This document shows positions 44,336 to 55,917 of a DNA stretch of 64,000 nt, in pieces (position 1 is the first letter of the stretch; the number at the start of each line of letters is the position of its first letter). The notes under the pieces are model-generated. The model ran no database searches and had not been told where the DNA came from. It worked only from the letters and a program-made list of their open reading frames with translations. The position numbers and the translations under genes are program-made. Origin of the DNA: Curvularia clavata (lineage: Eukaryota); the NCBI GenBank assembly GCA_023920165.1, contig CP089280.1:1860001-1924000 (forward strand), read 5' to 3'.

Positions 44336-44364
44336 CGGAGGTCCGGCGCCAAGACGGATGTCCG
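44336..44364. promoter_or_regulatory. Two CGGA-N2-TCCG palindromes (putative Zn2Cys6 sites) upstream of the MFS gene
   Basis: CGGAGGTCCG at 44336-44345 and CGGATGTCCG at 44355-44364. Confidence 0.65.
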
Positions 44365-45202
44365 TGTGGCACAGCATGCTACCTCGAACGATTAGGTACG
44401 TCATTTTTGTTTACTCCAATGCTGCTAGGCCTTATGAATAGAATGTTTTCGTCTTAAAAAGTCTTCTGACACATGTATCGTGTTTGTTAAGCGCGGACGT
44501 CGTGGTCATGCGCAGCTCGATGACGCGCTTGGTGATTCCGATTGGTCTGGGATTTGGGACTGTTGAGGCACCTTCATGCGTCGGACTCTTGAGATGATTT
44601 TCGAGTTTATTTTCTGGAAGTTTATGGGAACCGTACATCAGAATAGTATGCTGAAATGCCTTGGGTTGGTCTTTGGGGACTGTTGCTTGAGGTGGATAAC
44701 GACAGTTCACTTGATGTGGCAAGAGGCACGATGCGGACGTTGATTACTCTGATTGATTGACCTGTTTTTGAATAACATTCACTGTATTTGTATTCACATG
44801 TGGAATTTTAACAATGAAGTAATCAGAATTATACGTGTTAAGGCGTAGATTGCCATGGAATACATGCGAATGCGCATAGTGGCTGTGCTGACGTATTCAG
44901 CACTGAATGCGCAATGAATTTTTAAAGCTTTTATGCCATTGAAGAACACTATGTACGTTTGCTATTACTGTCGTCTTTCCTTGCGCTCCTTCTGGTCTAG
45001 AAAAACATCGACGCACAGATACTAGAGGTGACGAGATACTAAGGAAATCAAACTTTTCATTATTCTATTGACACTCTCCACTATTGATCATTGGGTCTCT
45101 TCCAATCGCCAAAATTTGAATAGATGTAGGCAAAGGTAAGGTAAGTAGAAAGCAATCCAGGAGCTGGGTGTGCTTTTAAAAATATCCAATTTTGATACAA
45201 CC

Positions 45203-47060
45203 TTAAAAAGCAAGATCAGGGTGTTTTACCAGAGCCTCCTCAAACATGGTGTCGATCAGCTTTGCTTTATGCCCATCTCTAGGCTTGAGGTCAAACACGA
45301 ATGGTGCTGGTCGCGTGATGAGTAAGTCTGTCCAATCGGAGAAGTGCACTGGAATATCTGTTCACGAATCAGTATACCTGCATACGGTTTGAAGTAGATG
45401 CTAGAATACGTACCGGCACCGCTCTTACTCTTCTTCTTAGACACATCAAAAGCCCAAGCTAAAGATCCCACAATGGTGACCAGCTGATAGTCCACAATTT
45501 CCATACCCATGCAATTGCGACGTCCGTAGCCGAAGACATGGTGGTTGATGACGTTGGGATATTTGGTCAGAGGCTCTTTGTATGTTGGATATTTAGGGTT
45601 CAGGTAGCGGTCAGGGTTGAATTCTTCAGGGTTTGGGTAGAGGGCCTCGTCACTGCGGCGCGCCCATTCAGTGGCGTGGACAAGCGTGCCCTTTTCGATC
45701 AGATAACCATCGTAAACGTCATCCCTCTCAGCTTCGTGGGGAACACCAGTAGGTACAGGTGGCCTCCAGCGGATCAACTCCTTTCCGACCGCCCTGAGGA
45801 TAGGGAGCTTGGGTGCATCAGCCCAGGTGGGGAGACGGTCAGGTCCACAAACTTCATCGATCTCTGCTTGGAGTCGCTTCTGCCATTCAGGGTAGTGGCA
45901 CATCGTCAGGAAAAATGTCTGGATTGGAGAAGACATCGGTAGTGATGCTGTAATAGCAAGCATACCCACTGCAAAAGCGCCCTCCTTATCGTCCTTGACA
46001 TCGCTTGGGAACTTGAGGCGCTTTTGCTCCTGGAGGAATGTACGGGACCATGAGTAACCATCAATACCAGCTTGCATCTTAACTTTGACCGCTTGCATTG
46101 CACCCACCCAAAATTCTTGCTGGGCATCATGGCGCTTCTTTTCTCTCCAGTACCATGGGTTGAGGATATTCGGTAAAAGCATGATGATTGGTAGCTTATT
46201 TGGTAGCTGTCCGGCAGGCGAGATGGCAGAGAGAAGACCAGTGGAGCTTTTTTGGAGGGTTCGGCTCAAGCTAGGGTCTTCTCACGCCAGACGAGCACTC
46301 ACACGATGAGTGAATTCTTCTGCAAGCCTGGGGTAGTTACGGTTGTCCCTCTTCAACTGGTACATCATCCTCTTGATCTCCAAATGGGTAAAACCATACA
46401 TGTCATAGTTGAAAGTCTTTGCGAAACACTCATGGGCAAACTTTCGATGCCTTGTAAGCGCCTCTATAGATCTCTCAGTCAGTATCGATAACCTAAAGAC
46501 ATAACGCTTCGCGCGCTACGGTAATCCAGGGAAGCACATCTTGCTTACCATTATTGTCCAACAGAGGAAGATATTCAGCGTCTGTCTTAGCACCGGGGAT
46601 ATTCGGCGTGGGCGCTCGATTCGAATAATAAGCACCTCGTTTGGCAAGGATATCTTGGGCCATCTTTTCACTATTTAGTCGGATATGTTTGACGCCGAAC
46701 AGCGTCAACTGATAGATTGGACCATATTCATCGTGCTTCATGGTCATTAGTCAAATCGGAGTGCCTTATTGCAAGATACGCACCCATTCTGCGAACTTCT
46801 TGTAAACATTCGTAGAGGGTAACTGGAAGACCGGCCCAATCCATGGTATACCTTCATAGTTTTTCAGTATAAGTCGCCAGTATGACCTTATGCAACTTAC
46901 CCTTGGGCCCTGGGATCGTTTTGTATTGCGCTTTCTTCTGGTCCTTCCGAACGATACGAATCATAGCCCAAATAAGAGTACTAATTACACTGAACGCCAT
47001 CAACGGGGCGAACATGGAAAGCAGAGATAGCGATCCAGCCTGAATGAACTTCTCAGACAT
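45203..47060 (-). pseudogene. Cytochrome P450 with an in-frame premature TGA (pseudogene or sequencing error), 5 exons
   Basis: N-terminal anchor, IPGPKG, YGPIY, KELIRWRP (ExxR), FNPDRY, heme motif FGYGRRNCMG. Exon 4 reads EEFTHRVSARLA*EDPSL with TGA at 46284-46282. Confidence 0.8.
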
Positions 47061-55335: not shown

Positions 55336-55907
55336 CAAAGTAGCACGTTCGCACCAGGATTTAGAAGTGGCAAAAGGCTGGTATCCACAAGCTATAAGAA
55401 GCAAAGCGCAGAGTGGGGCGCACAGGTACCAGCGAGTGCATGAATTCGAGCAGGCAGGATTTGGTGCTCGGCTAGCCAAATGACATGTCTTCTACTGATG
55501 GTTTCGTCAGCCTTTCCAGGCGCGTACCTACAGTCGGGTGCCAACGATCCTTCCGCTTGCCTAGCGTTTCCCCACTAAACCTCAAACAAATCACCAACTT
55601 TAAAGCACCATTATACTGCAGCGACCTGACGGGTAAAAAGAGCGAGTAGGTCACAAGTTAATGAGAATACATCCGGTGTTTTAGTCTAAGGGCCCCTCGT
55701 AAGACTATAGTCATCAAGGCAGTGTGGCACAGACATGCTGCGTGGAAGGGAAATATTGAAGTGAAGCCATGACCGCAGAAGTAGTCAAGCCTGATTCGGC
55801 AGAATATAGCTACCTAATACTAGATGCAACTCCCTCGAGCACCAATGACAGCCTGGTCTTTGACGTTGCTAGACGAATTTGGTAACAATAACGAGGATCT
55901 CATGGAG

Positions 55908-55917
55908 CGGAAGTCCG
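55908..55917. promoter_or_regulatory. CGGA-N2-TCCG palindrome upstream of TF2 (possible autoregulation)
   Basis: CGGAAGTCCG, about 570 bp upstream of the ATG at 55335. Confidence 0.45.

Follow-up and report, generated by a model that had tools for sequence, protein, structure and literature searches.

What does a ten-base palindrome that stands in one promoter after another of a single gene island do there, and which protein reads it? The island in question comprises seven genes (TF1, MFS, P450, FAD/BBE oxidase, DUF1772, SDR and TF2) and lies in the 64-kb window, by which we mean the whole stretch of DNA that was analysed. The palindrome is CGGA-NN-TCCG (CGGANNTCCG). Housekeeping genes adjoin the island, with a GH81 gene and a Na/Ca exchanger on one side and EF-Tu and an enoyl-CoA hydratase (ECH) on the other, and two Zn2Cys6 genes, TF1 and TF2, bracket the motif-bearing promoters (Table 1).

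Table 1. Island genes, exact copies of the palindrome and one relaxed site in the 64-kb window.
Feature	Position	Strand	Sequence	Details
TF1, Zn2Cys6 and Fungal_trans regulator	39229..41988	+		712 aa, five introns by spliced model
MFS transporter, TRI12/MFS_1-like	42000..43987	-		Pfam on exon ORFs; ATG 43987; 3' end approximate
Cytochrome P450	45256..47060	-		Pfam p450, E 8.8e-43; ATG 47060
FAD_binding_4/BBE-type flavin oxidase	47916..49489	+		Pfam; ATG 47916
DUF1772/anthrone-oxygenase-family transcript	50035..51143	-		Pfam Anthrone_oxy; ATG 50875; intron 50344-50458
SDR transcript	51306..52630	+		Pfam adh_short; CDS 51578-52555; RNA contig of run X16
TF2, Zn2Cys6 regulator	52632..55423	-		794 aa by model; ATG 55335; RNA joints
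Motif copy 1	44336..44345		CGGAGGTCCG	MFS promoter, 349 bp upstream of MFS ATG
Motif copy 2	44355..44364		CGGATGTCCG	MFS promoter, 368 bp upstream of MFS ATG
Motif copy 3	47648..47657		CGGATGTCCG	P450/FAD-BBE divergent promoter
Motif copy 4	47713..47722		CGGACATCCG	P450/FAD-BBE divergent promoter, 65 bp from copy 3
Motif copy 5	51232..51241		CGGAGTTCCG	DUF1772/SDR divergent promoter, near its centre
Motif copy 6	55908..55917		CGGAAGTCCG	573 bp upstream of TF2 ATG
Copy outside island	1277..1286		CGGAGTTCCG	Between amidase ORF and DUF2231 gene
Copy outside island	17038..17047		CGGAGCTCCG	Within PAP1/Yap1-type coding ORF
Relaxed site	38354..38363		CGGACACCCG	Upstream of TF1

Both regulator genes are transcribed and spliced, as seen in RNA contigs (for TF1, spliced contigs from three runs). 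TF1 has Pfam matches to Zn_clus (39413-39502, E 6e-8) and to Fungal_trans. TF2 carries the zinc cluster pattern CX2CX6CX5CX2CX6C, split by an intron and followed by a long low-complexity stretch (read by eye). Its middle region gave no Pfam match in the window's own exons, and the clusters that a protein-atlas look-up of the middle exon returned were all of generic fungal transcription factors (scores 0.86-0.93); those TF2 homologues that bear names carry PF04082. TF2 was found in six protein clusters only, all of them from Pleosporaceae.

Among the remaining genes, the DUF1772 transcript model is backed by RNA contigs and a splice joint. We placed the P450 start codon at 47060 because the N-terminal exon is common to the window and to L002, a syntenic metagenome contig of 19.7 kb; the same exon rules out a start at 47516. 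An ORF at 47271-47579 had no Pfam match and no tblastn match in L002. No family match to a core synthase (PKS, NRPS, terpene cyclase or DMATS) was found among the stop-to-stop ORFs scanned in the window, which came to 61 and 39 in two sets (2 in both) and, left of 34 kb, formed a selected subset only. A core gene could lie elsewhere in the genome.

The palindrome occurs eight times in the window, as against 0.98 copies expected by chance (sd 0.97), and none of 100 dinucleotide shuffles of the window reached that number (highest count 4). Six copies fall in the island promoters, 5,294 bp in which 0.042 would be expected and in which none of 2,000 shuffles reached six (highest count 2); elsewhere in the 18.6-kb island there is none. 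All six lie 200-650 bp upstream of start codons (for copy 5 the distance is 357 bp to the DUF1772 ATG and ~340 bp to that of SDR), and all six are built of two inverted CGG triplets (CGG...CCG). The other two copies, in the remaining ~45 kb of the window, represent the chance level. That at 1277 looks like chance, one copy per window being expected, and we claim no function for it; that at 17038 is probably due to chance as well.

These counts agree largely with a preliminary description of the locus, which had listed six exact promoter copies, all confirmed in position and sequence, and had noted that three of them are one 10-mer or its reverse complement (CGGATGTCCG), which is correct. Its estimate of about one copy per 65 kb by chance matches ours, and its assignment of the copies to the MFS, P450/FAD, DUF1772/SDR and TF2 promoters holds after the start codons have been placed. 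It had also reported one further copy in the window; the copy at 1277 is indeed present, and a second one, at 17038, had been overlooked, so that the total is eight and not seven.

Copies 1 and 2 stand in tandem, 19 bp from start to start. Copies 3 and 4 form a 13-bp inverted pair (TTGCGGATGTCCG), and an ACGCTA flank is common to the copies at 44336 and 51232.

The enrichment is limited to the 2-base spacer. Inverted CGGA-Nk-TCCG is found eight times in the window at k=2 and 0-2 times at any other k between 0 and 15, while everted forms of the dyad number 0-2 and direct forms 0-4. An unbiased dyad screen of the island promoters versus the window remainder gave CGGA-N2-TCCG at 6 to 2 (p ~4e-7), and five of the eight top dyads in the island-promoter screen were shifts of it. 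The relaxed class CGGNNNNCCG is not enriched: it has 15 members in the window, eight of them the exact motif and seven others, versus 10.56 expected, and 12 of 100 shuffles reached 15. The relaxed CGG-N4-CCG that the preliminary description had placed upstream of TF1 does exist; because its class is at chance level, we left it out of the element, and the TF1 upstream region contains no exact copy of the motif.

We compared the island with three related loci (L001, L002 and L003), whose coding DNA is 70-73% identical to that of the window; L001 and L003 are 90% identical to each other in SDR DNA and hence not independent. L002 has the gene order of the window (MFS, P450, FAD, DUF1772, SDR, TF2, EF-Tu, ECH) with 42-88% protein identity across island exon pieces and 73% DNA identity in SDR, and it ends inside the MFS gene, so that the position of TF1 falls outside the comparison. 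It contains four exact copies of the motif versus 0.27 expected, a number reached in none of 200 shuffles. All four are in three orthologous promoters (4 in 3,205 bp, versus 0.047 expected); no copy is present in L002 past TF2 (~7 kb) or in L003 (10.5 kb).

In the MFS promoter the tandem arrangement recurs, with an exact copy in L002 at 926 (CGGACTTCCG) and, at the same 19-bp offset as in the window, a site at 907 (CAGAGGTCCG, CAGA-NN-TCCG) that has one mismatch, inside a CGG triplet; the flank TCCGTG..TGGCA is common to both tandems. The P450/FAD intergenic region of L002 has an exact copy at 4307, orthologous to the region of copy 3, and at 4395 the same 10-mer as copy 4 (CGGACATCCG), and the longest exact words that it has in common with its counterpart in the window are motif words. 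At the DUF1772/SDR site L002 (8376) shares an identical 14-mer (ACGGAGTTCCGTAC) with the window, and L001 (1932) a 13-mer; the sole blastn match between the window and L002 in this intergenic region is the 20 bp around the motif. When these intergenic regions were aligned globally with MAFFT, the flanks proved too diverged for the window motif to line up with those of L002 and L001, and exact-word comparison, blastn and short local alignments were used in its place.

The inverted orientation of the triplets is kept in five of the six copies in related loci, the exception being L002 907. Of all 4-Nk-4 dyads (k 0-12), eight were common to the three window promoters and eight to the three of L002; the only ones present in all six were CGGA-N2-TCCG and its 1-base shift. 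Conservation thus extends to three of the four promoters (MFS, P450/FAD and DUF1772/SDR) in L002, and for DUF1772/SDR to L001 as well. Relatives retain the motif at the corresponding promoters, and the other intergenic DNA has diverged past alignment.

The TF2 promoter is the exception, its copy having no exact counterpart in L002 or L003. Both loci have CCGAAATCCG there (L002 12965, L003 4328), a one-mismatch site within a 15-mer common to the two, whose reverse complement reads CGG-N4-CGG and is a direct repeat, not an inverted one. One-mismatch sites occur in L002 at ~0.7 per kb (14 in 19.7 kb), and the TF2 upstream region of the window could not be aligned with that of L002 or L003. CCGAAATCCG is not counted as conservation. 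The preliminary description had proposed that the palindrome is the operator for TF1 or TF2 and defines the regulon. This is supported in part: CGGA-NN-TCCG is a real, spacer-specific and promoter-confined element within the island, conserved, and flanked by two Zn2Cys6 genes. TF1 and TF2 are both candidates for its regulator, and the TF2-promoter copy lacks exact conservation in L002 and L003.

Inverted CGG triplets are the classic target of Zn2Cys6 proteins. We suggest that a putative zinc-cluster regulator very probably docks at the palindrome, and that CGGA-NN-TCCG probably serves as a conserved upstream activating or operator site for the island promoters, with a Zn2Cys6 protein as its predicted regulator. 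The two CGG triplets, which are four bases apart, would each be occupied by one of two zinc-cluster DNA-binding domains in opposite orientation, and the bound regulator would drive the divergent and the single promoters of the island. Such a regulator would most likely be encoded in the island itself: TF2 would be the foremost candidate, with somewhat less than an even chance, TF1 would come second as a serious contender, and an unlinked factor would come last. The DNA-binding domain of TF2 is nearly invariant in L002 and L003, the whole protein being 56-63% identical. No coiled coil is obvious right after the zinc cluster in TF1 or TF2 (sequences read by eye), so the 4-bp spacing may, by analogy, work as described for the DNA-binding domain of AflR, two molecules of which bind inverted on neighbouring CG sites.

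RNA contigs from four runs give some indication of how the promoters behave. Contig depth is a poor measure, which cannot rank genes; by that measure, word depth of the SDR contig was ~3,000-7,500 in X17 and X18 versus 44 in X16, and that of the DUF1772 contig was 46-73 in X17/X18 versus 4. SDR and DUF1772 thus rose together in X17 and X18, while the FAD and MFS contigs were at 3.4 or less, and the depths of TF1 (82, 23, 25) and TF2 (29, 9, 22) did not rise alongside SDR. The RNA contigs of the four runs, with depth as this poor measure, gave no sign of a joint rise of all motif-bearing genes. Given the uneven depths of SDR/DUF1772 versus FAD/MFS, and TF1 and TF2 not following SDR, there is a weak hint that the motif-bearing promoters are not simply turned on together, and likewise a weak hint that any activation does not proceed via transcription-factor abundance. 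Contigs end on either side of copy 5, at 51143 from the DUF1772 side and at 51306 from the SDR side, leaving 51144-51305 uncovered among the pieces listed, and parts of P450, MFS and FAD lack contig cover in X16-X18; such gaps carry no proof of silence or of transcript starts.

These depths could weakly favor a different reader of the same element. The palindrome may be real and conserved but bound by a regulator encoded elsewhere, such as a zinc-cluster factor of the general xenobiotic or stress response or a protein of another class, with TF1 and TF2 acting via other sites or not on the island promoters at all. The lack of tracking between TF1/TF2 and SDR/DUF1772 depths across runs is consistent with this, as are the recurrence of the SDR-site 10-mer (CGGAGTTCCG) 50 kb away, upstream of the DUF2231 gene, and the failure of the TF2-promoter copy to be conserved; furthermore, an MFS pump, a P450, an SDR and a flavin oxidase would together make up the usual inducible detoxification set. 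We consider an unlinked regulator unlikely, however, as the motif is at chance level outside the island, be it in the window remainder, in L002 past TF2 or in L003, and two genes of the very class that classically binds inverted CGG bracket the sites.

It is very improbable that the copies are remnants of a repeated segment, for instance a small mobile element or parts of promoters that were duplicated. The inverted pair of copies 3 and 4 and the ACGCTA flank would fit such an origin, but among 12 sites compared the flanks are unrelated past 1-6 bases, and the extended arms are lost in L002 while the eight specified bases are kept; a decaying repeat would not preserve exact CGG triplets at 70-73% coding identity. 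Chance or a compositional effect without function can be dismissed almost entirely: single 10-mers can recur, as those at 1277 and 17038 appear to, but the observed counts were reached in none of the 100, 2,000 and 200 shuffles, a single spacer length is enriched, the motif recurs at orthologous promoters of L002 and L001, and recent transfer of the same DNA to L001-L003 is excluded by the divergence of their coding sequences.

A zinc-cluster site with inverted triplets can be compared with several known systems. Yeast zinc-cluster dimers such as Gal4, Ppr1 and Put3 bind CGG-Nx-CCG with spacers of 6-11 bases, set by linker and coiled coil. The island element resembles this class in its inverted CGG triplets and fixed spacer, a spacer that is specific to the factor in the yeast proteins, and differs from it in its spacer of 4 and in the lack of an evident coiled coil in TF1 and TF2.

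Closer in spacing is the PglR motif CGG-N3-CCG of the Fusarium PGL1 (perithecial pigment) cluster, in a study that quotes Gal4 and War1 as examples of CGG-site factors (PMC4872168). That motif, too, was found by promoter comparison, and its binding was, as here, inferred and not shown. In both cases an inverted CGG palindrome is over-represented in promoters of a cluster that encodes its own Zn2Cys6 factor, and site positions are largely kept between species (PMC4872168). PglR sites have a spacer of 3 instead of 4, and the PGL1 cluster contains a PKS core and has been studied by overexpression of PglR (PMC4872168), whereas for the island no core gene was found among the window ORFs scanned. 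The GliZ site of the gliotoxin cluster, TCGG-N3-CCGA, is likewise a palindromic CGG/CCG pair with conserved adjoining bases, repeated across the promoters of one cluster that has an in-cluster Zn2Cys6 activator (PMC7022936). Its extra conserved bases lie outside the triplets (T..A), and its spacer is 3 (PMC7022936), in contrast to bases inside the triplets (CGGA..TCCG) and a spacer of 4 in the island; the transcription factors are unrelated as far as tested.

For AflR, two DNA-binding domains are described as occupying CGGN3CCG-type sites in inverted orientation (PMC12501005). The closely spaced inverted CG sites (TCG-N5-CGA/CGGN3CCG-type) are a point of likeness, and disordered regions flank the AflR zinc cluster (PMC12501005), as TF2 has its low-complexity stretch, read by eye, after its own. 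Spacing and sequence differ, and AflR binding has been shown experimentally (PMC12501005), whereas here it serves as an analogy only.

The element is of a known kind among fungal clusters, such as specialists expect; its 4-base spacer appears to be new and would join the known CGG-Nx-CCG spacings of zinc-cluster factors. For CGG-N4-CCG or CGGANNTCCG, in spellings without brackets, we found no fungal paper, the matching papers being bacterial by title or abstract (Bacillus, Pseudomonas, bacterial lipopeptides), which is weak evidence that this spacing is undescribed in fungi.

In its most specific form, the proposal would be that TF2, a fast-evolving factor, has CGGA-N2-TCCG as its operator and acts as two inverted monomers on CGG-N4-CCG, and that the motif marks out a conserved regulon for detoxification or tailoring that lacks a core synthase; we put this forward tentatively, as possible but doubtful. 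If it were true, unlinked members of the regulon, including any missing core gene, could be found via conserved copies in Pleosporales genomes. The motif also provides a testable regulatory handle on an uncharacterised, conserved Pleosporaceae island, and the 10-bp site together with two candidate regulators could be used for switching the island on and for finding its inducer, its product or substrate, and its unlinked members. As a minor observation, the motif often has an A just before it.

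Here we find that the CGGA-NN-TCCG palindrome is a real motif, specific in its spacer, restricted to promoters and under selection, and its best-supported reading is that of a putative operator for a zinc-cluster regulator encoded by the island itself. The window, which is fungal DNA, contains eight copies of CGGANNTCCG against 0.98 expected (sd 0.97, maximum 4), and at least eight were reached in 0 of 100 dinucleotide shuffles. In a spacer control across the window, inverted CGGA-Nk-TCCG occurred eight times at k=2 and 0-2 times at any other k from 0 to 15, with 0-4 occurrences each for everted and direct arrangements; because k=2 alone is enriched, the signal is spacer-specific. 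Six copies fall within the 5,294 bp of island promoters, where 0.042 are expected and none of 2,000 shuffles reached six (maximum 2), and the remainder of the 18.6-kb island holds none. When 4-Nk-4 dyads in the island promoters were compared with the window outside the island, CGGA-N2-TCCG ranked in the top four (6 vs 2, p ~4e-7) and its shifts made up five of the eight best. With both strands of 12 sites counted, A precedes CGG in 12 of 24 cases and G in 6; the two central bases are variable.

All six promoter copies named in the preliminary description are exact in sequence and position. A copy at 1277 had been the only other one spotted by eye; a further copy, missed at that time, lies at 17038 within a PAP1/Yap1-type coding ORF. 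A relaxed CGG-N4-CCG site at 38354, upstream of TF1, had also been put forward. The relaxed class CGGNNNNCCG is not enriched in the window (15 vs 10.56 expected; at least 15 in 12 of 100 shuffles), the exact motif accounting for 8 of the 15, and the 38354 site therefore carries no weight. The copy at 1277-1286 (CGGAGTTCCG) is the same 10-mer as the SDR-promoter copy. It has an amidase ORF on one side and, on the other, a DUF2231 membrane-protein gene whose first ORF starts ~285 bp away; it could be a chance occurrence or an outlying target.

The gene layout was drawn from Pfam scans of stop-to-stop ORFs, six-frame prints and spliced RNA contigs. Housekeeping genes border the island: GH81 and a Na/Ca exchanger to the left, EF-Tu and enoyl-CoA hydratase (ECH) to the right. 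Pfam detected no core-synthase domain among the scanned ORFs (two sets, 61 and 39, with 2 common to both), those left of 34 kb being a selected subset. In the spliced model the start codon of TF1 is interrupted by intron 1 (AT at 39325-39326, G at 39373), a joint present in two of four runs.

Genes of the island and motif copies in their promoters (window positions)
Feature	Position	Strand	Detail
TF1	mRNA 39229-41988	+	Zn2Cys6 and Fungal_trans; five introns; 712 aa, spliced model
MFS transporter	ATG 43987	−	
Two motif copies, MFS promoter	44336, 44355		349 and 368 bp 5' of MFS ATG
Cytochrome P450	ATG 47060	−	
Two motif copies, P450/FAD	47648, 47713		within 855-bp divergent intergenic region
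FAD_binding_4/BBE oxidase	ATG 47916	+	
DUF1772/anthrone-oxygenase-family gene	ATG 50875	−	
One motif copy, DUF1772/SDR	51232		about mid-way in 702-bp divergent intergenic region
SDR	ATG 51578	+	
TF2	ATG 55335	−	intron splits zinc cluster; 794 aa by model
One motif copy, TF2 promoter	55908		573 bp 5' of TF2 ATG

Scanning metagenome contigs with the SDR protein yielded four loci, three of them orthologous: L002 (19.7 kb, SDR protein identity 76%), L001 (3.4 kb, 75%) and L003 (10.5 kb, beginning within SDR, 70%). SDR coding DNA is 73% identical between window and L002, 71% between window and L001, 80% between L002 and L001 and 90% between L001 and L003; the loci thus represent different taxa, with L001 and L003 mutually close. 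L002 has the gene order of the window (partial MFS, P450, FAD, DUF1772, SDR, TF2, EF-Tu, ECH), with protein identities of 42-88% for island exon pieces vs 87-96% for housekeeping genes. SDR homologues from named taxa (Bipolaris maydis 89%, Stemphylium 84%, Alternaria 74-75%, Parastagonospora 64%), all bearing either no protein name or a generic one, place the group within Pleosporales.

The motif is retained in these relatives. L002 has four exact copies vs 0.27 expected (0 of 200 shuffles reach four), all in three orthologous promoters totalling 3,205 bp (0.047 expected; 0 of 2,000 shuffles reach four). In its MFS promoter, CAGAGGTCCG at 907 (one mismatch) and CGGACTTCCG at 926 reproduce the 19-bp tandem offset of 44336/44355 in the window, ~230 and ~250 bp 5' of an MFS start read from the frame print. 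The two P450/FAD copies are 88 bp apart in L002 (4307, 4395) vs 65 bp in the window. Between DUF1772 and SDR, the 14-mer ACGGAGTTCCGTAC is the same in the window (51231) and L002 (8376), and 13 bases of it in L001 (1932). With blastn, the sole match between the window and L002 in this region is 20 bp around the motif, and none with an E value of 0.01 or lower links the window to L001. Flank divergence defeats global alignment of these intergenic regions, leaving the window's copy out of register; in short local alignments the motif is a conspicuous block of identity. Eight 4-Nk-4 dyads (k 0-12) are common to three window promoters and eight to three L002 promoters; only CGGA-N2-TCCG and its one-base shift ACGG-N3-TCCG are common to all six.

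L003 contains no exact copy in its 10.5 kb. Upstream of TF2, both L002 (at 12965, 481 bp before the ATG) and L003 (at 4328, 922 bp before it) carry CCGAAATCCG, which departs from the motif at one base and reads on the opposite strand as CGG-N4-CGG, a direct repeat. It lies in a 15-mer, GGTCCCCGAAATCCG, common to L002 12960-12974 and L003 4323-4337, in a block that is only 67% identical. Because one-mismatch sites are frequent in L002 (~0.7 per kb; 14 in 19.7 kb), we discounted it as a conserved TF2-promoter site. Neither locus can be aligned to the window upstream of TF2.

Other words were observed in the same promoters. Between DUF1772 and SDR the window holds four copies of the half-site word TTCCGTAC (51054, 51084, 51236, 51466): three extend to GTTCCGTAC and one is part of the full site, the only place where this region of L002 and L001 matches the word. 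An E-box-like CACGTGA, which may be the site of a second factor, immediately precedes the DUF1772/SDR copy (51210-51216; L002 ~8365) and is followed by ACGCTA in both; L001 has no CACGTG there. In L002, 880-935 holds AGGACCTCCT and TGGAGGTCTG, degenerate motif-like words 5' of the MFS tandem that form a small palindrome.

An inverted CGG palindrome with a cluster-linked Zn2Cys6 factor is a familiar pattern in cluster promoters. The closest parallel among those compared comes from the Fusarium PGL1 cluster and its factor PglR, for which CGG-N3-CCG, a motif with positions largely conserved across species, was derived by like promoter logic (PMC4872168); GliZ is credited with TCGGN3CCGA (PMC7022936), and two AflR DNA-binding domains bind in inverted orientation on CGGN3CCG-type sites (PMC12501005). 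As given there, these sites have an N3 spacer, whereas the window motif has a four-base spacer and carries its extra conserved bases inside the triplets. Full-text searching for the motif spellings, run on unbracketed forms, returned only bacterial papers as judged by titles and abstracts, a faint indication that the four-base spacing is undescribed in fungi.

TF1 and TF2 each have a canonical six-cysteine cluster. The DNA-binding domain of TF2 is near-invariant in L002 and L003, where the whole protein is 56-63% identical, and TF2 homologues form only six protein clusters, Pleosporaceae throughout (a Curvularia protein identical over the matched part, Bipolaris 69%, Alternaria 58-60%, Pyrenophora 50-51%). 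TF1 is more widely spread and better conserved than TF2, with homologues in 37 clusters (Bipolaris 78%, Alternaria 77%, Pyrenophora 75-76%, Parastagonospora 67%, Didymellaceae ~50-55%). The TF2-promoter site would fit autoregulation by TF2 and, equally, TF1 acting above TF2. As the factor for the motif we tentatively favour TF2, by a narrow margin over TF1; an unlinked factor is unlikely. In one Pyrenophora teres assembly, the homologues of TF1 (P0131) and TF2 (P0127) have locus tags three apart and an equal longest-contig size, and so remain linked; by tags just two genes lie between them vs five in the window, and the island may be smaller in that assembly.

Contigs from four RNA runs were compared with window positions 38000-57000. 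Spliced contigs, which also supplied the intron positions, show that TF1, TF2, DUF1772 and SDR are transcribed. Although contigs do not reveal true transcript ends, cover ends at 51143 on the DUF1772 side and begins at 51306 on the SDR side, so the 51232-51241 site lies between the outermost covered positions of the divergent transcripts. Word depth in contigs, a poor gauge of expression, was in runs X16, X17 and X18 respectively 44, ~3,000-4,500 and ~4,100-7,500 for SDR, 4, 46 and 73 for DUF1772, 82, 23 and 25 for TF1, and 29, 9 and 22 for TF2; FAD and MFS contigs had depths of at most 3.4. This weakly hints that SDR and DUF1772, joined by the 51232 site, vary together, and as weakly that the remaining motif-bearing genes do not follow them and that the TF transcripts are not up with SDR. 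The earlier proposal that the motif defines a regulon thus finds no match, on this poor measure, in neat co-expression.

One X17 contig (depth 530) extends from the 3' region of SDR into the opposite-strand TF2 gene and has a GT..AG splice on the + strand (52729-52791) removing 61 bases, which suggests that read-through from SDR yields a spliced transcript antisense to the TF2 3' end. Measured against the window, contigs under the same species label show 2 differing letters in 2,449 for TF1 (39229-41988) and, within 50459-55164, 20 in 677 for DUF1772 and 19 in 1,325 for SDR, with 17 in 1,099 and 6 in 1,141 for TF2; divergence among strains thus varies strongly along the island.
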